Made by a program: the position numbers and the translations under genes | Shown: positions 913-42,597 of the stretch, in pieces | Layout: each line of letters begins with the position of its first letter | How positions within the stretch are numbered: the first letter of the stretch is position 1 | Notes under the pieces: generated by a model | What the model was told of the DNA's origin: nothing | Databases searched by the model: none | Seen by the model: the letters and a program-made list of their open reading frames with translations, nothing else | Source: Enterococcus phage IME-EFm1 | Reading direction: 5' to 3' (one strand) | Sequence record: KJ010489.1 | Length of the DNA: 42,597 nt

Positions 913-932
913 CCTACACAAAACTAAAATAT

Positions 933-944
933 TGTGGTATAATA
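933..944 (+). promoter_or_regulatory. Extended -10 promoter (TGgTATAAT) in the terS-terL intergenic region
   Basis: ttgTGGTATAAT just downstream of the terS stop. Confidence 0.4.
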
Positions 945-981
945 ATATCAGCAAATGAGTGGTAAACATTAGATACACCAT

Positions 982-1011
982 TATCACAAAAGTCGGATTT
1001 TGTGATATAAT
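982..1011 (+). promoter_or_regulatory. Operator-like perfect palindrome (TATCACAAAA-gtcgga-TTTTGTGATA) overlapping an extended -10 promoter (TGaTATAAT)
   Basis: 10-bp perfect inverted repeat at 982-1007. Its right arm overlaps the TGTGATATAAT -10 element at 1001-1011. Confidence 0.45.
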
Positions 1012-1014
1012 ATG

Positions 1015-1474
1015 TTAAGTAAATCATTGGCGTGATTTTACAAAAAAGAATCAAACATTTTTCTATATACGTGATCGAGGCGTATTTCTGCGGAGTACGT
1101 CATCCTACAGCATGCGTGTTGTAGGAAATACATATTAGGTAGTGTATATTTCTTATTCCTCTAAGAATGACATACACAAAACGTTGGCTGCCACTTAGAG
1201 CGTGATCTCAAGTCAGTACCTTATAGGTAACAACCAGTAGGAGAGTTGGAAACCTTAGCTCCTAAGAGGACATAGTGGAACACACCCACTTAAAATAATT
1301 GCTCGCTATAGTGTCTAGCGAATGCGTGATAGTATGACCCTCTTTGACGACAAGCACGACAAAGCAGTTAGCCACATAACAGAGGGCGTGGAAACCTGCA
1401 GATACTCGCTTCACCCACTCTTTAGTGGTGTGTAGATGAACCCACTAGTCTAGCTAACTAGTGGGTATTTTTAT
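1015..1474 (+). ncRNA. Candidate large structured non-coding RNA or regulatory leader between terS and terL
   Basis: ~600 nt lacks any ORF of 60 aa or more on either strand, in an otherwise tightly packed genome. It is locally GC-richer, has promoters upstream, many short helices, and ends with a strong intrinsic terminator at 1440-1474. Confidence 0.35.
1440..1474 (+). terminator. Rho-independent terminator (ACCCACTAGT-ctagcta-ACTAGTGGGT followed by ATTTTTAT)
   Basis: Perfect 10-bp stem, 7-nt loop and a T-run. A preceding segment (1424-1432, AGTGGTGTG) can alternatively pair with 1412-1419 or with the terminator's 5' arm. Confidence 0.8.
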
Positions 1475-1483
1475 GCTATAATA
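1472..1483 (+). promoter_or_regulatory. Extended -10 promoter (TGcTATAAT) for terL
   Basis: ttaTGCTATAAT directly after the terminator. RBS AAAGGAGG precedes the terL ATG at 1515. Confidence 0.5.
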
Positions 1484-1514
1484 TAAGTGACTAGAATAAA
1501 AGGAGGATACATAA

Positions 1515-3290
1515 ATGGTAGACTATGTACAAGACTATATTAATCTTATTGAAACAGGATGGATTGAAGGACGTAAATATATAGTAGAAGAAGATTATTA
1601 TAAACCTATCAAGGTTGAAATCAGAGTTGGTAAAAAAATCAAACAAGCAATCGAGAGACATCAAAAGGATATGAAAAAATCTGAAGATAAATCGTATCCA
1701 TATATTTATAGACCAGAAGAAGCTGTGCCAGTAGTGAACTTTATTGAAATGTTACCAGACCCCAAATCACGTCAGCCAATGAAGTTAGCAACGTTTCAGA
1801 AATTCATCGTTGGTTTGATTTATGGATGGAGAAAAAAGAAAGACAATACCAGACGTTTTAGAAAAGCATATATTTCATTAGCACGTAAGAATGGTAAGTC
1901 TATTCTCGTAGCAGGGATTGCACTATATGAGCTGCTATTTGGTAAAAATCCAAAAGCTTCTAGACAGGTAGTGGCAGCAGCAAACACAAAAGATCAAGCA
2001 GGTATTGTATATGGAATGCTAGTAAAGTATCTATATGCACTGCGTAATGTATCACCAGAGGTTAAGAAACGAAGTAAAATTACAAAACGTGAGGGGGTAG
2101 AGTTATCAGACTTTTCAACTATGAAACAGTTGTCAAGTGACGCAGAAACATTAGATGGATTAGATGTGCTATGCGGTATTCTGGATGAGTATGGAGAAGC
2201 TAAAACATCAGATATTATTCAAGTATTAGAATCTTCACAAGCACAACAGGTTGAAGGCTTAATCATGATTATTTCAACCACTACAAAAAATTTAAATGGA
2301 CCCATGCATACAGAAGAATATCCATTTGTAGAGAAGTTGTTAAATGAGGAAGTAAAAGGTGACGCTTATTTGGCTCTTTGTTGGGAAATGGACTCACTTG
2401 CTGAGGTAGATGATCCTACAAACTGGATCAAATCCAATCCATTATTTGAAATTCCAGAAGCGTGGGATTCAATGATGGAACACAAAAACAACTCTTTAGA
2501 TGAGTACAAAGGTAAAATGGATTTATCTGGCTGGTTAACTAAAGAAATGAATTTCTGGGTTCAATCATCCAAAGATAGTTTTGTAACCAAAGAGGAATGG
2601 GACGCAGTGAAAGCACCTACTAATTATAATATTAGAGGTAGAAAAGTATACATTGGTATTGACTTAGCCAGAACATCAGACATGACCGCGGTTTCATGGA
2701 TTATTCCAATAGAAGAGGAGCACAAATTATTACTAGACACACATGGCTTTGTATCATCAGTGGGAGGTATTGACCATAAGCAGTCAATTGACAAAATACC
2801 CTACAGACAATATGAGTCAATGAAGCTCATTCATATCTCACAACGTGAGGATGGCCTAATAGACACAGAAGAGATGTGTGATTGGATACGTGACTTCATA
2901 GATTATACTGACTTACAACTGGTAGGTATTTATTATGATCCATTTATGATGGATAAAGCGTTGATTAATCTAAGTAAGACCTATCCAAAAAAACTAATTG
3001 AAGTACCACAGAAAATAAACTATTTATCTTCACCAACAAGAGCCTTGCGTGAGTTAATTCGTAGAGGTGAAGTAATGCACACCAATAATCCGTTACTGAA
3101 TCGTGCGGCATACAATGCTATGATTAAAGAGTACAACGACAGCGTTGCGATTGATAAGCAAATAAACAGGAATAAAATTGACTCACTTGACGCCATAATA
3201 AATGCGATGAGTGACGCTCAATATCACGATTATGACGCACCAACCTTGCAAGATTTACTAGATAGCGGTGAATTTGGTTTTGGATACTAA
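1515..3290 (+). CDS. terL: Terminase large subunit (Terminase_1 family ATPase/nuclease)
   Basis: 591 aa. Motifs FIEMLPDPKS, KLATFQKF, WRKK...RRFRKAYISLARKNGKS (Walker A-like) and LDEYGE (Walker B-like) are typical of siphovirus large terminases. Confidence 0.9.
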   Translation: MVDYVQDYINLIETGWIEGRKYIVEEDYYKPIKVEIRVGKKIKQAIERHQKDMKKSEDKSYPYIYRPEEAVPVVNFIEMLPDPKSRQPMKLATFQKFIVGLIYGWRKKKDNTRRFRKAYISLARKNGKSILVAGIALYELLFGKNPKASRQVVAAANTKDQAGIVYGMLVKYLYALRNVSPEVKKRSKITKREGVELSDFSTMKQLSSDAETLDGLDVLCGILDEYGEAKTSDIIQVLESSQAQQVEGLIMIISTTTKNLNGPMHTEEYPFVEKLLNEEVKGDAYLALCWEMDSLAEVDDPTNWIKSNPLFEIPEAWDSMMEHKNNSLDEYKGKMDLSGWLTKEMNFWVQSSKDSFVTKEEWDAVKAPTNYNIRGRKVYIGIDLARTSDMTAVSWIIPIEEEHKLLLDTHGFVSSVGGIDHKQSIDKIPYRQYESMKLIHISQREDGLIDTEEMCDWIRDFIDYTDLQLVGIYYDPFMMDKALINLSKTYPKKLIEVPQKINYLSSPTRALRELIRRGEVMHTNNPLLNRAAYNAMIKEYNDSVAIDKQINRNKIDSLDAIINAMSDAQYHDYDAPTLQDLLDSGEFGFGY

Positions 3291-3563: not shown

Positions 3564-4769
3564 ATGGGATTATTCATAAACAACGGAAACCCAGTGACAG
3601 AGCAACAATTTATTGATATAATCAATACTGGAACAGCTTACACTACCAATTTCACAGGCCTCAAAGCGTTGACAAACTCAGATATTTATACTGGAGTTAA
3701 CATCATTGCTGGAGATATTGCTCAAAGTCCATTTAAACCAGCAGCTACAACCTCAGTAGATGACAGTTTGTTATACTTGTTAAATAAAGAGCCAAAGGAA
3801 AATCAATCACACTATACAATGATGTATGCAGTGGTTTCAAACCTTATTTTAACAGGAAACGCATATGTTCTCCTTCATAGACACAATGATGGTAGTGTGA
3901 AAGAGTTAGAATTTGTAGAAACACAACAGGTTAACGTCATTAGAGACCTTGTTACAGGCTTATACAGATATGAAGTTAACATGCCATATGGCAATATTAT
4001 GTATAAGTGTGACCCACGTGATATTTTACATTTCAAATTAAGTACCACAGATGGCTGGCTAGGACGCTCACCATTGTTATCATTGAATGACGAAATATCA
4101 TTACAAACTAATGGACTAAAAGTACTAAATAATTTCTTTTCAAAAGGTGTCTTCTCTGGAGGTATTCTTAAATTATTAAATGGTACGGTCAACAACCAAA
4201 CGAAAGCCAAAATTAGGGACGACTTTGAGAAAGTTAATGGCGCTGGAGGAACAATCGTTCTTGATGAAACTCAAGAATTCAATGAGAACAAAATCAACAC
4301 AGAAGTACTAAAATTGATTCAAGCCAATAAATTTAGCACGCAACAGATTGCCAAAGTTTTAGGCATTCCAGTTAACAGATTTGGACAAGAATTAGTCAAT
4401 TCATCTGACACTGGACAAAATGATATTTATATTGCCAGCACGATTGCAATGTATGAATCATCTATCTGTGACGAGTTGAATCTAAAATTAGGGGTAGAGT
4501 TAGAGTTAGATTTATCTAAACTACGTCAAGATACAAAAGAAGATAGACTGCGTAGAATTGCAGAAGGAAGAGTGAAGTCTGAGTTTGCGCAAGCCTTAAC
4601 GGTAAATGACGCACGTGAGTATCTTGGTTTTACTGAGATTGAAGGAGGAGAAGCCTTACTTGGTCAAAAATCAGAAACAAGTGAAAATAAAACAGAACAG
4701 GAAGTGAATGTTAATGAAGAAGAACTTGGAAATCAGAGCGCTACAGACACTGGAGAAGACAGAGGATAA
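3564..4769 (+). CDS. Portal protein
   Basis: 401 aa immediately after terL. Typical portal size and position, with an acidic C-terminus. Confidence 0.8.
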   Translation: MGLFINNGNPVTEQQFIDIINTGTAYTTNFTGLKALTNSDIYTGVNIIAGDIAQSPFKPAATTSVDDSLLYLLNKEPKENQSHYTMMYAVVSNLILTGNAYVLLHRHNDGSVKELEFVETQQVNVIRDLVTGLYRYEVNMPYGNIMYKCDPRDILHFKLSTTDGWLGRSPLLSLNDEISLQTNGLKVLNNFFSKGVFSGGILKLLNGTVNNQTKAKIRDDFEKVNGAGGTIVLDETQEFNENKINTEVLKLIQANKFSTQQIAKVLGIPVNRFGQELVNSSDTGQNDIYIASTIAMYESSICDELNLKLGVELELDLSKLRQDTKEDRLRRIAEGRVKSEFAQALTVNDAREYLGFTEIEGGEALLGQKSETSENKTEQEVNVNEEELGNQSATDTGEDRG

Positions 4770-5265
4770 TGTAGTGGAAGGATATGCACTAAAATTTAAT
4801 AAAGAATCACGTAATTTAGGTGGATTTGTGGAGACCATTTCACCAGAAGCATTAGAAGGGGTAGACTTAACAGATGTACGTTGTTTTATGGATCACGACT
4901 CTAGTAAATTATTAGGACGTACATCAAGCGGAACACTGCAACTGAATGTAGATGATATTGGCTTACATTTTCGTTGTGTGCTTCCTGACACAAGTAATGG
5001 TCGTGACGCAATGGAACTTGTAAAACGAGGGGATTTGAATCAATGCTCGTTTGGTTTCACAGTGGCTAAAGACAAATGGATAAAAGGTAAAGACATTATG
5101 AAACGTTCAATCAACAAGATCGGTTCATTATTAGAAATTTCACTAGTATCAATTCCAGCCTATGATGACACAGATGTGCGAGTTGCTACGCGCTCACTAG
5201 AGGAAGCTGTTAATGAATTAGAGAAACAACGCTTAGAAGTTGAATTGGAGCTGTTGGGCTTGTAA
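4708..5265 (+). CDS. Prohead serine protease (HK97 family)
   Basis: The motif block EGYALKFN...GGFVETISPEA...FMDHD...LGRTSSGTL...GDLNQCSFGF matches HK97-type prohead proteases. It overlaps the portal 3' end. Confidence 0.8.
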   Translation: MLMKKNLEIRALQTLEKTEDNVVEGYALKFNKESRNLGGFVETISPEALEGVDLTDVRCFMDHDSSKLLGRTSSGTLQLNVDDIGLHFRCVLPDTSNGRDAMELVKRGDLNQCSFGFTVAKDKWIKGKDIMKRSINKIGSLLEISLVSIPAYDDTDVRVATRSLEEAVNELEKQRLEVELELLGL

Positions 5266-5334
5266 TTTAAAGCCCACAACTTCTTATATCTATGCTATAA
5301 TTAAAACAGAAAGCTAGTGAAGGAGTGAGATTGA

Positions 5335-8036: not shown

Positions 8037-8600
8037 ATGGCATTAGTAGGCTTTGAAAAAGCAATCATTTCAGTACCAAAAGTAGGCGGAGTAGGCGTAG
8101 ACCAATTAGTAATTGATAAGACAGGTGGAGGTACAATTGAAGCAAGTATCTCAGGCATTTCACCAGACCAAACAACCGTATATGCGTCAAATGTACCTAT
8201 TTGGGTATCAGCTAAAGGGGTTGGTGAGTTGACTGCCTCATTAAACGTATTTGACCTTTACAAAAACGGTGTATATGAAAAAATCATGGGTATCACACGT
8301 GACGCAGATGGTGTAGCTATGGTGGGTCAAGACACGGAAGCACCTTATGTATCAGTGGTATTTGTATCAAGCACCGCAGATGGTAAGAAGATGTTACTTG
8401 GTTTGACAAAAGGACGATTCTCACATCCAGAATTAGCCTTGAACACATCAGAATCTGGTGGAACAGAACCAAATACAGAAACAATTGAAGGTTCATTTGT
8501 AACGGACTCACGCGGTATTGCTTACATGAGCGGAGTGGAAGATGGTACTAAGTTAACACTAGAAAAATTCATTAACAAAGTTAACAATGTCGCAGCATAG
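8037..8600 (+). CDS. Major tail protein
   Basis: 187 aa. MALVGFEKAIISVPKVGG...TGGGTIEA fits siphovirus major tail proteins. Followed by a strong terminator. Confidence 0.75.
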   Translation: MALVGFEKAIISVPKVGGVGVDQLVIDKTGGGTIEASISGISPDQTTVYASNVPIWVSAKGVGELTASLNVFDLYKNGVYEKIMGITRDADGVAMVGQDTEAPYVSVVFVSSTADGKKMLLGLTKGRFSHPELALNTSESGGTEPNTETIEGSFVTDSRGIAYMSGVEDGTKLTLEKFINKVNNVAA

Positions 8601-8610
8601 TAACATTAAA

Positions 8611-8641
8611 ACCTAGTCTTAGTTGACTAGGTTTTTATTTA
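8611..8641 (+). terminator. Rho-independent terminator (AAACCTAGTC-ttagtt-GACTAGGTTTTTATTT)
   Basis: 10-bp stem plus a T-run, immediately after the major tail gene. Confidence 0.8.
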
Positions 8642-8706
8642 CACACTTGAGGGATTATATGATATAATGAAGTAGTAAAGATAAATAAAACATTGGAGGA
8701 ACTAAA

Positions 8707-9054: not shown

Positions 9055-9265
9055 AGCAATGGATAAGATGTACACTGACCTTCTATCCAGTGAGTCTGGA
9101 ACATGGTCTCTATCAGAAATTAACAACGCAGATTATAATTTACTAATGGAACTATTTACAAAAGACAATAAACCTAAAAAAGAAAAACTGCAAGACCCAG
9201 TAGATTTCTTTGGTACATTTATGAGTCCACAAGATATAGCAAAAGTAAAAGGTGAGACACTTTAG
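8707..9265 (+). CDS. Tail assembly chaperone frameshift fusion (gpGT-like), predicted +1 shift at AAA-AGG (9007-9012)
   Basis: The downstream ORF (open from 8951 to 9265) has no own start or RBS. It lies in the +1 frame relative to the gpG-like ORF and overlaps its 3' end. Confidence 0.5.
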
Positions 9266-9288
9266 CGCACGGCTAGAGTGTCTATTTT
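9253..9288 (+). terminator. Hairpin (GAGACACT...AGTGTCTC) then T-rich, upstream of the tape-measure promoter
   Basis: Inverted repeat followed by tattttatg and the promoter TGtTATAAT at 9289-9297. Confidence 0.4.
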
Positions 9289-9331
9289 ATGTTATAATAG
9301 ATTAAGAAAGCAAGCAAAAGGAGTGAAATGC

Positions 9332-12300: not shown

Positions 12301-13644
12301 AAAGGTACTAACTTCTTTGGTAACATGTGGGACAGTGTGAAAAATGTTGCTGGTAATGTAGGAAACACACTGAAAAACGTAGTAGGTGATGTGTGGGACT
12401 TCATTTCAGACCCTGGAGCATTAGCTAGAAAAGTACTTGGTGGCTTAGATGTATTAGGTGGATTGACAAAATATCCATTAGAAGTAGGTAAAGGTATTCT
12501 ATCTAAAGCAACAAGCGCCCTGACTGAAAAGATTACTGGGTTGTTCTCATCTGGTAACTTAGATACATCTATAGGAACAAACGGCGTATATAAATATTTA
12601 GCAGATGTAGCTAAATCTGTAATGAAGAAATTCCCAGGCTTTGTGGCAACTAGTGGGTATAGACCAGGCGACCCATATTCACATGGTAAACGTAACGCAA
12701 TTGATATTGCATTACCAGGTGTCACAGGAGGTTCACCACGCTACACAGAAGCCGCAAACTATGCTTTTGACAAATTCGCTTCCAAGATTGGTTACGTTAT
12801 CACAAATGGTAAAGTTCGTGACCGTTCAGGACAATCAGGTACAGGTATTCATAACGATTGGAGACCATGGCCAGATGGAGACCATTATGATCACGTGCAT
12901 TTAAACGGTGTGAAAGACCCACAAAACACTCAAATTTCAGGTGATAGCGTGGGAGGCAGTGGCGTAGAAAGATGGCGTAATGTAGCAATCAGAGCATTGA
13001 AAATGACTGGTCAATACAGTACTGCAAACTTAAATGCATTACTAAATCAAATGCGTACAGAGTCAAATGGTAATCCTAATGCAATTAACAACTGGGATAT
13101 TAACGCTAAAAATGGAACACCTTCTAAAGGGTTGCTCCAAGTGATTGACCCAACCTTCAGACAGTATGCAATGCCTGGATTCAACAGTAATATCTATGAC
13201 CCACTAAGTAATATTCTAGCATCTATAAAGTATGCCCTAGCCACATATGGCTCACTAACCAACGCTTATCGTGGAGTTGGTTACGAATACGGTGGAAGGG
13301 TCACAAAAGAACACATTGCAAGAGTTGGAGAAGGCAACAAAGAAGAGGTTATAATTCCATTAACAGGCACTGGCTTAAAACGTTCAAGAGCTATGCAACT
13401 ATTAGCATATGCTAATGAAAAACTTGGTAAAAACAAGACTACACCTACATCATTAAGTGGTAGTAATTCTAATCAAGACTTGACCATCTTGATTAATTTG
13501 ATGCAACAACAAAATGAACTCTTAATGGCGTTGCTTGATAAGTCACCTACGATTGAACTTGATGGGAATAAGGTAAGTAAAGAAATTACAAAGTATCAAG
13601 AATCAGCAACACGTAATCGAAATAGACAAATGGGATTAATATAA
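9332..13644 (+). CDS. Tail tape measure protein (TP901-type core; LAS-family Zn-peptidase and lytic transglycosylase domains). The reading frame is broken near 10319-10322.
   Basis: N-terminal coiled-coil ORF 9332-10360, then frame -1 open from 10312 to 13644. The core motif is LGFGGDANMANNAIVQLSQSFSNGKVDAQTWNSM. The H-x6-D...HVH motif spans ~12640-12900. The SLT-like RTESNGNPNA...GLLQV motif spans ~13030-13260. Confidence 0.75.
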
Positions 13645-13645
13645 G

Positions 13646-13677
13646 AAAAAAAAAGGGGGATAAACCCCCTTTTTTAT
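13646..13677 (+). terminator. Rho-independent terminator (A9-GGGGG-ataaa-CCCCC-T6)
   Basis: Perfect GC stem flanked by an A-run and a T-run (bidirectional-capable). Followed by the promoter TGtTATAAT at 13677-13685. Confidence 0.8.
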
Positions 13678-13713
13678 GTTATAATAGAAATATAAATAAT
13701 TAGGAGTGATTAC

Positions 13714-16848: not shown

Positions 16849-16851
16849 AAG

Positions 16852-16894
16852 AATATTAGGGGGTGTACAACCCTCTAATATTGTGTTATAATAG
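16852..16894 (+). promoter_or_regulatory. Hairpin (AATATTAGGGGG...CCCTCTAATATT) followed by an extended -10 promoter (TGtTATAAT)
   Basis: 12-bp stem with one G-U pair, then gtgTTATAAT at 16885-16893 upstream of the Tal gene. Confidence 0.45.
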
Positions 16895-42518: not shown

Positions 42519-42597
42519 ATCAACAAGCGCGCAGCCAAAATTATTTTAGGGAGACCCAAAATGTTTTTACCCGCCTACCTTTTTATAACGAATTAAT

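Follow-up and report, generated by a model that had tools for sequence, protein, structure and literature searches.

The gap between the genes for the small (terS) and large (terL) terminase subunits of Enterococcus phage IME-EFm1, positions 913-1514 of sequence record KJ010489.1 (42,597 nucleotides, the whole of which we call the window), is very probably a gene for a structured plus-strand RNA and not spacer, a cohesive-end site (cos) or coding sequence. The RNA consists of exchangeable modules (M1-M4) strung one after the other, which fold independently and two of which are pseudoknotted. Our preferred reading, to which we give a probability of roughly 45%, is that the locus is an accessory cassette expressing RNAs that act in trans as decoys or antitoxin mimics.

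The original prediction, made from the letters of the window, had singled out about 600 nt free of open reading frames (ORFs) in an otherwise densely coding genome and had proposed a transcribed structured RNA rather than spacer. Both parts of this agree with what we found. No ORF of at least 60 amino acids lies within 913-1514, which is the sole large non-coding gap of the genome (the next are 284 nt and the 260-nt region close to cos). The longest frames in the gap have 50 amino acids (minus strand, 1262-1414) and then 37, and stop codons interrupt the 50-amino-acid frame in the other allele of its module. Searches with the small ORFs of the gap against Pfam and PHROGs gave zero matches. The body is GC-richer than the genome, as had been noted (0.414 over 1018-1474 and 0.442 over 1076-1439, compared to 0.352), and the abundance of helices that had been remarked on exceeds chance, with a plus-strand folding z of -3.1 against shuffles and helices that are supported by covariation. 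Helix cells contain 21 G-U and 7 A-C combinations, a bias that points to the plus strand. As expected of an independent small or non-coding RNA (ncRNA) gene of the bacterial type, the locus has its own predicted promoter, no conserved ORF, an intrinsic terminator and covariation-supported structure. Conservation and covariation across relatives, whose absence had been set beforehand as the grounds for giving up an RNA, were both found, which favours an RNA. The features of the locus are as follows.

Promoter P1, 915-943, plus strand: TACACA, 17 nt, TGgTATAAT (TGGTATAAT at 935-943).
Promoter P2, 983-1011, plus strand: ATCACA, 17 nt, TGaTATAAT (TGATATAAT at 1003-1011).
M1, 1019-1075, plus strand: 5'-terminal hairpin GUAAAUCA / UGAUUUUAC (1019-1041), then an A/U-rich tail.
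M2, 1076-1140, plus strand: hairpins 1079-1084/1096-1101 and 1103-1109/1120-1126, and a conserved single-stranded AUACAUAUUAGGU(A/G)G.
M3 (long variant), 1141-1270, plus strand: outer helix 1142-1147/1172-1177, inner hairpin 1150-1155/1162-1167.
M3 pseudoknot: CCUCU at 1158-1162 with AGAGG at 1265-1269, the inner-hairpin loop pairing with the 3' tail.
M3 invariant 15-nt loop, 1244-1258: AGUUGGAAACCUUAG, closed by the stem 1238-1243/1259-1264.
M4, 1275-1405, plus strand: helices H1 (1275-1278/1286-1289), H2 (1304-1308/1316-1320), H3 (1325-1328/1355-1358) and H4 (1364-1375/1388-1399).
M4 loop-loop pseudoknot, joining H3 and H4: CCCUCU at 1338-1343 with AGAGGG at 1381-1386.
M5, 1406-1439, plus strand: optional hairpin 1412-1419/1424-1430, resembling a shortened terminator hairpin.
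Intrinsic terminator, 1440-1473, plus strand: CCCACUAGU, CUAGCUA, ACUAGUGGG, then UAUUUUUA.
terL extended -10 promoter, 1474-1482, plus strand: TGCTATAAT, conserved in relatives.
terL ribosome-binding site, about 1499-1506, plus strand: AAAGGAGG, ahead of the terL start codon at 1515.

The two extended -10 promoters that had been read in the sequence are present at 935-943 and 1003-1011, each with a -35-like hexamer 17 nt upstream. P1 starts 3 nt past the terS stop codon, has a predicted transcription start at about 950 and is kept in place in 13 of 13 aligned relatives (TATAAT or TATACT, with TG upstream) as well as in the loci of Efquatrovirus phages. P2 is a direct repeat of P1 (72% identical, repeat family D1) with a predicted start at about 1018, and was found in KEN21, dArtagnan, KEN22, IME-EFm5 and EF36P1. 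The composite CACAAA-N-TGTGnTATAAT occurs only at P1 and P2 in 42.6 kb, where 0 occurrences are expected. An operator-like palindrome does overlap P2, as proposed (ATCACAAAA at 983-991 and TTTTGTGAT at 998-1006, with a 6-nt spacer), although its arms are 9 bp and not 10 bp long. P1 and P2 are predicted to drive an ncRNA of about 525 or 455 nt, respectively, that ends at the intrinsic terminator.

The terminator consists of a stem (1441-1449/1457-1465) followed by a T-run, where the RNA is predicted to end, and it lies directly before terL's own promoter, just as had been described. Its core sequence occurs once in the window. The stem covaries (A-U to C-G in five sequences, C-G to U-A in eight) and has a predicted pairing probability of 0.88-0.99 in 24 of 24 homologous contexts, so no competing antiterminator is predicted. 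Positions 1474-1517 are the boundary of the cassette, outside the RNA. The arrangement at 1440-1482, in which a terminator hairpin stands in place of a -35 box and an extended -10 (TGnTATAAT) comes directly after it, recurs before five other late units that have no RNA cassette (junctions 5250-5301, 8600-8668, 9250-9298, 13640-13685 and 16850-16892, with the -10 at 5293, 8660, 9290, 13677 and 16884). The motif TGnTATAAT itself occurs 18 times, compared to 4.4 expected, mostly on the plus strand of the structural module. The junction of terminator and promoter in the cassette looks like a constitutive unit boundary and is unlikely to be a switch.

The fold of the modules is best supported for M2, M3 and M4. 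Helices 1-3 of M2 (alignment A2) are 87-100% paired, with compensatory changes. The M3 pseudoknot exists in three compensatory versions over 22 variants (ACCGC/GCGGU, CCUCU/AGAGG, which is that of the window, and CCUCA/UGAGG), and the stem that closes the invariant loop likewise has three versions (UAGGAG/CUCCUA, GUGAG/CUCAC and UGACGG/CCGUCA). No further copy or complement of this loop was found in the window above chance. Over M2 and M3 together (1076-1270, nine sequences) 94.3% of positions are paired, compared to 34-45% in a control in which the partners were slid out of register, and 14 pairs are compensatory, including four of the five pseudoknot pairs. An alignment of 24 distinct M4 copies is 94.8% paired over five helices (25-47% when the 3' partners were slid by 1-3 columns). 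Thirteen M4 pairs show compensatory change, and 0 of 500 shuffles reach the observed covariation score; since a few recombining alleles supply much of the covariation, the independent covariation events are fewer than such cell counts. The M4 pseudoknot has the alleles CCCUCU:AGAGGG and CCCUAC:GUAGGG, and H3 has an additional U-A to C-G exchange in locus L148. The unpaired stretches GAUAGUAU, UUGA(C/U)GA and CAGAUAC of M4 are invariant. In the window the M4 covariance model (R1) has one hit only, at 1291-1405 with 126 bits. Invariant unpaired nucleotides and two pseudoknots argue for selection on specific three-dimensional folds, beyond stable hairpins, and invariant loops and junctions within folded modules are a pattern typical of protein-binding RNAs. 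That M3 and M4 are new pseudoknotted RNA motifs, not in Rfam, is well supported irrespective of function.

The 5' and 3' ends of the RNA are less constant. The window shares M1 only with phages 9184 and BUCT630, and the module has no similarity to abiF RNA (by a phage-derived model and by pairwise alignment, z = 0.1). Positions 1021-1073 of M1 are 94% identical over 54 nt to a conjugative plasmid of E. hirae (NZ_CP068115.1; 3001-3054 of locus L173). The plasmid stretch is unannotated and lies between the genes for a resolvase and a Y-family polymerase, with a second partial copy 60 nt downstream and no recognisable coding content adjoining it; it may be the host or plasmid RNA from which M1 descends or which M1 imitates. 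M5 occurs in just six of 24 homologous copies, and its arm sequences follow those of the terminator (inverted repeat I4). A three-hairpin attenuator involving M5 was set aside, as the hairpin occurs in these six copies only and looks like a degenerate duplicate of the terminator. A 23-nt inverted repeat (78% complementary) links 906-928, at the end of terS and the -35 region of P1, with 1421-1443 in M5. It would close the whole cassette as a long-range stem in read-through terS transcripts, and could be a processing site or chance.

The sequence CGTGAT, reported earlier as a recurring GCGTGAT, does occur four times (starts at 1031, 1070, 1201 and 1325), which makes four of the nine plus-strand copies in the genome. 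Only the copy at 1325, inside M4, is kept in relatives, and the motif is therefore mostly incidental; the idea that it is a protein-binding site was dropped for this reason.

The locus is shared by about 120 related phages (about 20 records of the E. faecium type and 101 of Efquatrovirus), and every relative that was examined has an ORF-free stretch from promoter to terminator at this place. Twenty phage records match the region, with coverage of at least 80% in only five. Twelve of the 12 fetched relatives keep a non-coding gap between terS and terL (399-785 nt), as do 26 IMG/VR contigs found via TerS (173-951 nt). In E. faecalis phages of Efquatrovirus, whose TerL is 63% identical, the cassette of phiSHEF4 is matched by 101 records, only 12 of them over most of its length. 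Constant over the clade are the promoter 3 nt past the terS stop codon, the intrinsic terminator and the TGnTATAAT promoter of terL. Between these constant parts, modules are present, absent, swapped or duplicated depending on the phage, also among phages whose TerL is 99% identical. KEN21 has two copies of M4. Locus L152 has one 5' hairpin only, in a gap of 173 nt. Locus L143 (IMG/VR contig 3300029751_000004, 77.5 kb) has three M3 and two M4 copies, one of which is truncated, and carries a gene for a D12-class N6-adenine DNA methyltransferase (3617-4531) behind P2 and ahead of the M3 and M4 copies. The module that adjoins the terminator varies as well (M4, M5, another module in L153, or the 5' hairpin alone in L152). 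M4 is absent from Efquatrovirus, L152 and L153, and no module is universal. Recombination breakpoints lie inside modules in L147 and in the second copy of L024. Streptococcus phage phi30c and a staphylococcal phage of the PVL type, with TerL in the range of 33-38% identity, do not have such a locus: the former has one small annotated ORF between terS and terL, and in the latter the two genes overlap. The locus is therefore confined to a clade of enterococcal phages. Comparison of these sequences supports the view that the cassette is an exchangeable accessory hot spot, held at its site by the conserved genes on either side, terS and terL.

Other elements are found at the same site in some phages. 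In EF36P1 (1298-1558 of locus L010) and in L153 (about 1983-2240) an additional unit with its own promoter and terminator follows the RNA terminator; it encodes a protein of 86 amino acids, probably a coiled coil, with no significant Pfam match. HNH genes adjoin the cassette in Bp29, L147 and L148. The GenBank records of KEN21 (1509-2175 of locus L004) and KEN22 (1248-1732 of locus L007) annotate six 'hypothetical proteins' of 29-37 amino acids and one of 130 amino acids on the minus strand over the cassette. These are probably annotation artefacts, as the frames are not conserved.

A pointer to a function comes from the siblings of IME-EFm1, in which the first module resembles the abiF RNA of bacterial defence loci. 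AbiF is a type III toxin-antitoxin system of abortive infection, whose toxin is neutralised, in cis as well as in trans, by an RNA from upstream of its gene that blocks the HEPN active site (PMC12373285; PMC13064643; PMC12737573). PMC13064643, referring to Rince et al. 2000 and Zilberzwige-Tal et al. 2025, describes a hairpin in the cos region of the lactococcal phage sk1 that inhibits AbiF. A permissive Rfam search over the relatives' loci gave a single hit, in which the first module of phiSHEF4 matches the abiF family (RF03085) with 31.1 bits (gathering score 37; E = 0.11 in a 50-kb search). The first module of dArtagnan gives a local match of 19.9 bits to the same model, also below the gathering score. 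A hairpin of this type, with the core GCGCCUCUUAACAAUGCG, is the first module in KEN21, dArtagnan, EhiS_268, L152, L161, L162 and L186, and variants exist in L159 and, with an inserted stem, in KEN22, IME-EFm5 and phiSHEF2. The outer stem has at least five compensatory versions. In the alignment of these hairpins (A5) eight of 11 pairs covary and 88.6% are paired, compared to 18-49% in the slid control. The siblings have the two stems that define abiF RNAs together with the conserved loop CUCUNAACNAU, and three predicted folds share one architecture.

We compared the phage module against plasmids by BLAST, which led to Legionella plasmids, directly upstream of an 'Abi family protein' (Pfam Abi_2, E = 2.6e-56). 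A genuine Rfam abiF motif (42 bits) lies at this site, and its core is almost base for base like the phage hairpin. A covariance model made from the phage hairpins only (R2) retrieves the Legionella motif with E = 4.7e-6. Judged from these sequences, the resemblance between the sibling hairpins and abiF is real despite their scores below the gathering threshold. Abi_2 genes are also present on 39 Enterococcus plasmids, and upstream of those on E. faecium and E. faecalis plasmids we found a promoter, the RNA AGUACUUGCCACGCCUCUGAUUUAAUAUCAUGCGCAUUAUGGUAGGGC and a U-run. The E. faecium plasmid RNA (L193) aligns with the phiSHEF4 hairpin, including its outer stem, with z = 6.4 (0 of 500 shuffles as good) and folds to the same architecture; the E. 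faecalis copy (L194) is near-identical. In both plasmids (about 1005-1068 of L193 and 1000-1068 of L194) the two-stem RNA has an extra inner hairpin in its loop (CUCUGAUUUAAUAUCAU), an expanded abiF variant that the Rfam abiF model misses at E<=1. A Drum RNA (RF02958, 50.2 bits; gathering score 43) lies at 596-693 of locus L195, from Enterococcus sp. plasmid NZ_CP033739.1, with an Abi_2 family gene about 470 nt downstream of it. The annotations of the fetched phage loci, where the cassette is followed by terL, list no Abi_2 gene, and the small ORFs of the cassette have no Pfam match. In KEN21 and dArtagnan the abiF-type hairpin is driven by P2 and followed by M2, as M1 is in the window. As the two occupy the same place between P2 and M2, M1 is an allelic replacement of an antitoxin-type hairpin.

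From the observed anatomy, conservation, covariation-supported structure and mosaic content of the locus, together with the abiF resemblance in siblings, we infer how the cassette may work. Two tandem promoters of the sigma-A type would drive a self-contained ncRNA unit, whose RNA would accumulate during infection and act in trans. As decoys or antitoxin mimics, the modules would bind those abortive-infection toxins of the host that are regulated by RNA and so neutralise them, with the abiF-type antitoxin hairpin in the M1 slot of the siblings as the model for the mechanism. A role in counter-defence is suggested by this hairpin in the same slot of sibling cassettes, by the methyltransferase cargo, by the duplication of modules, which suggests a dosage effect, and by the rapid turnover of modules among otherwise near-identical phages. 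The cassette could even be a multivalent, RNA-only counter-defence array in which each pseudoknotted module is directed at a different toxin and modules are shuffled to match hosts, although we think this version doubtful.

Several points weigh against a role as decoys or antitoxin mimics. The promoters, the transcript ends and the stability of the RNA are predictions. The window itself is without an abiF-like hairpin: Rfam gave no abiF match over 700-1700 at E<=10, and model R2 found nothing at E<=1. The sibling hairpins, with 31.1 and 19.9 bits, stay below the gathering score, and model R2 misses the enterococcal plasmid variant, so that this link comes from pairwise alignment. M1-M4 match no Rfam family. 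For M2-M4 a counter-defence role would follow from their association with neighbouring modules. No plasmid match to M2-M4 was found by BLAST, and a search of GTDB representative genomes with an M4 pattern returned seven loci that are all chance (model R1, at most 16 bits); for this reason no host RNA is known that M2-M4 could mimic. Most of the covariation stems from a small number of recombining alleles. A role in packaging would also fit the strict position of the locus between terS and terL and the precedent of the staphylococcal cabRNA.

Searches for other families, copies and targets help to delimit what the RNA is. At the gathering score Rfam has no match in the whole window and none in the loci of 20 relatives, and over 700-1700 it gives only three chance matches to eukaryotic snoRNAs (E of at least 2). 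A kinship with the GOLLD (RF01998) or ROOL (RF03087) class, which the original prediction had raised and these searches covered, is not borne out, as neither model has a match at E<=10 over 700-1700, and in place of one large ornate RNA we found independently exchangeable modules. Genes for tRNA and tmRNA are absent, and model R1 had no hits in the loci of Efquatrovirus or in those of the Abi_2 plasmids. A scan of metagenomes for M4 returned only further phages of the same kind and chance hits; the pattern GGGCGTG-N8-CAGATAC matches more than 119 loci in viral contigs, mostly by chance, and a longer M4 pattern was used instead. BLAST of three cassettes against 72,556 plasmids gave the M1 match described above and chance hits only. 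Antisense targets in the phage's own genome were not found, as no stretch of complementarity reaches 14 nt and the few 13-mers, which are A/T-rich, do not fall in the conserved loops. Tandem direct repeats of 30-45 nt, of the ToxI, CptI or TenpI type, are absent from 913-1514, where the only duplication is that of P1 and P2. No prior description of the locus was found in the literature searched.

The cassette is embedded in the usual gene order of an HK97-like cos module, which runs from an HNH gene at the right end through cos, the 260-nt region, an ORF of 60 amino acids, terS and the cassette to terL, portal and protease.

HNH endonuclease gene, right genome end: Pfam HNH match.
terS, 448-912: small terminase subunit, Terminase_4 match.
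terL, 1515-3290: large terminase subunit.

The cohesive ends of IME-EFm1 have been mapped experimentally to the genome termini, and the first 20 bases of the window (CTCTTCTTCGCACGAAATTC, 1-20) and the reverse complement of its last 20 (ATTAATTCGTTATAAAAAGG, 42578-42597) are the published terminal 20-mers. Since the mapped ends are the two ends of the window, 913-1514 is not cos. The stretch from the cohesive end to the first ORF holds two direct repeats of 35 nt (TTCCCnTnGTAAACnnGATTnAAnCCTGGTTTCTT, 83% identical; 48-82 and 140-174), which are candidate TerS-binding sites, i.e. cosB.

Other functions can be proposed for a structured RNA at this position. The modules might be sensors (riboswitch-like, protein-binding or put-like) in a cis-regulatory leader that gates read-through into terL and the late operon, an alternative that had been offered from the start. 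The succession of promoter, structured RNA, terminator and gene is the classic layout of an attenuator, and native abiF loci share it, with the RNA controlling read-through into abiF (PMC12373285). In addition, M4 ends 5-36 nt from the terminator, M5 could pair alternatively with the 5' arm of the terminator in six of 24 copies, and a survey describes unnamed structured-RNA candidates lying consistently upstream of large-terminase genes (PMC10690425). Against this stand terL's own conserved extended -10 directly past the terminator, the recurrence of the same junction before five late units without a cassette, and the terminator stem that is predicted to pair in all 24 contexts with no antiterminator. 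The module next to the terminator also differs by phage, and the spacer between M4 and the terminator varies in length. A leader of this kind is therefore improbable. A packaging-related RNA, serving as a cofactor, chaperone or stoichiometry regulator of terminase, portal or procapsid in the manner of phi29 pRNA or cabRNA, would explain why the position between terS and terL is strict in two phage groups that share only 63% identity in TerL. It has a precedent in cabRNA, a staphylococcal structured RNA of about 400 nt at terS-terL, which needs TerS for its proper length and whose mutation lowers fitness (PMC10686824). Yet no module is universal, M4 being absent from Efquatrovirus, L152 and L153 and L152 being reduced to one hairpin in its 173-nt gap, and phages with 99%-identical TerL carry different modules, which indicates that there is no co-evolution with the terminase. 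Close cos-type relatives of other genera are also without the locus, and we regard a packaging function as distinctly improbable.

A structured region with no function in trans is improbable too, whether its parts are stability or insulator elements (a 3' untranslated region that protects the orf1-terS mRNA, plus 5' and 3' hairpins) or, in a version that we grade jointly with this one, selfish or relic sequences such as captured toxin-antitoxin fragments or debris of homing endonucleases at a site that tolerates insertions. As there is no terminator between the terS stop codon and 1440, the terS mRNA must carry the region as a 3' untranslated region; HNH endonuclease genes insert around the locus in many relatives, and the breakpoints in L147 and the second L024 copy lie within modules. 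The invariant unpaired nucleotides, the two covariation-supported pseudoknots, the conserved dedicated tandem promoters and the presence of several module copies in some phages speak against it. We give almost no weight to a DNA-level element, either cos, as the original prediction had also considered, or terminase-binding repeats. The region adjoins the terminase genes and contains four copies of CGTGAT; however, only one of these copies is conserved, the cohesive ends lie at the ends of the window, direct repeats of the kind expected for TerS binding are those at 48-82 and 140-174, and compensatory changes and G-U pairs show selection on a single-stranded fold. Unannotated genes for small proteins, or a decayed gene, are just as hard to credit. 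The records of KEN21, KEN22 and EF36P1 annotate hypothetical proteins across the region, but no frame is conserved, the longest frame of the window is interrupted in the other allele, otherwise intact modules have single-base indels, Pfam and PHROGs have no match, and the substitutions in helices are compensatory.

If the modules are RNA decoys, as we tentatively prefer, the cassette would be a determinant of host range that is invisible to current annotation and a direct handle for finding the host systems that it targets. It would also be the first case of different anti-defence RNAs combined in one array, pseudo-ToxI and its like being single mimics. Among candidates for therapy against vancomycin-resistant enterococci, phages like IME-EFm1 and those of Efquatrovirus belong to the ones isolated most often, and in about 120 genomes this conserved locus of 0.2-0.9 kb is left blank or is filled with spurious 'hypothetical proteins' of 30 amino acids. 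Should the array be multivalent, M3 and M4 would be new classes of antitoxin-like RNA that could be used as probes for unrecognised enterococcal defence systems.

The abiF RNA (RF03085; AbiFr, RCd22) is, like the RNA of the cassette, a short structured RNA with a sigma-A promoter and an intrinsic terminator (PMC12373285), and the first module of the siblings has the abiF core CGCCUCUUAACAAUGCG and the two-stem architecture. Unlike an abiF locus, the window is without such a hairpin and has terL rather than an abiF toxin gene after the RNA, and M2-M4 are far larger, pseudoknotted folds with no abiF resemblance. The staphylococcal cabRNA is likewise a structured RNA of about 400 nt at the boundary of terS and terL (PMC10686824), whereas it is embedded in coding sequence, lacks its own promoter and terminator, triggers rather than inhibits a defence system (CBASS) and shares no sequence similarity. 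GOLLD and ROOL are, similarly, large structured ncRNAs borne by phages of Lactobacillales; the enterococcal RNA has no match to their covariance models, and in contrast to their one conserved ornate architecture it is modular, with modules shuffled among close relatives. The pRNA of phi29 is also a phage ncRNA encoded beside packaging functions, but it is essential and universal in its clade, whereas the cassette has no universal module and a minimal version of 173 nt. In lambda (PR', 6S RNA, tR') and in HK022 (put RNA) a promoter, a short ncRNA and a terminator stand ahead of the late genes; unlike there, terL has its own promoter, the junction is generic and no antiterminator is predicted. 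The pseudo-ToxI of Pectobacterium phage PhiTE is reportedly an antitoxin mimic with copy-number expansion of its RNA unit (Blower et al., 2012, are said to have described it). In PhiTE, as with the sk1 hairpin, a phage RNA neutralises an RNA-regulated abortive-infection toxin, and it is to these that we liken the cassette. With sk1 it shares an RNA in or near the packaging region, and with PhiTE the expansion of RNA units, here in KEN21 and L143. It differs from both in consisting of several unrelated modules behind dedicated promoters, in place of one hairpin or an array of repeats. Phage RNAs that imitate antitoxins are known; a heterogeneous cassette of several modules would be a new form of them.

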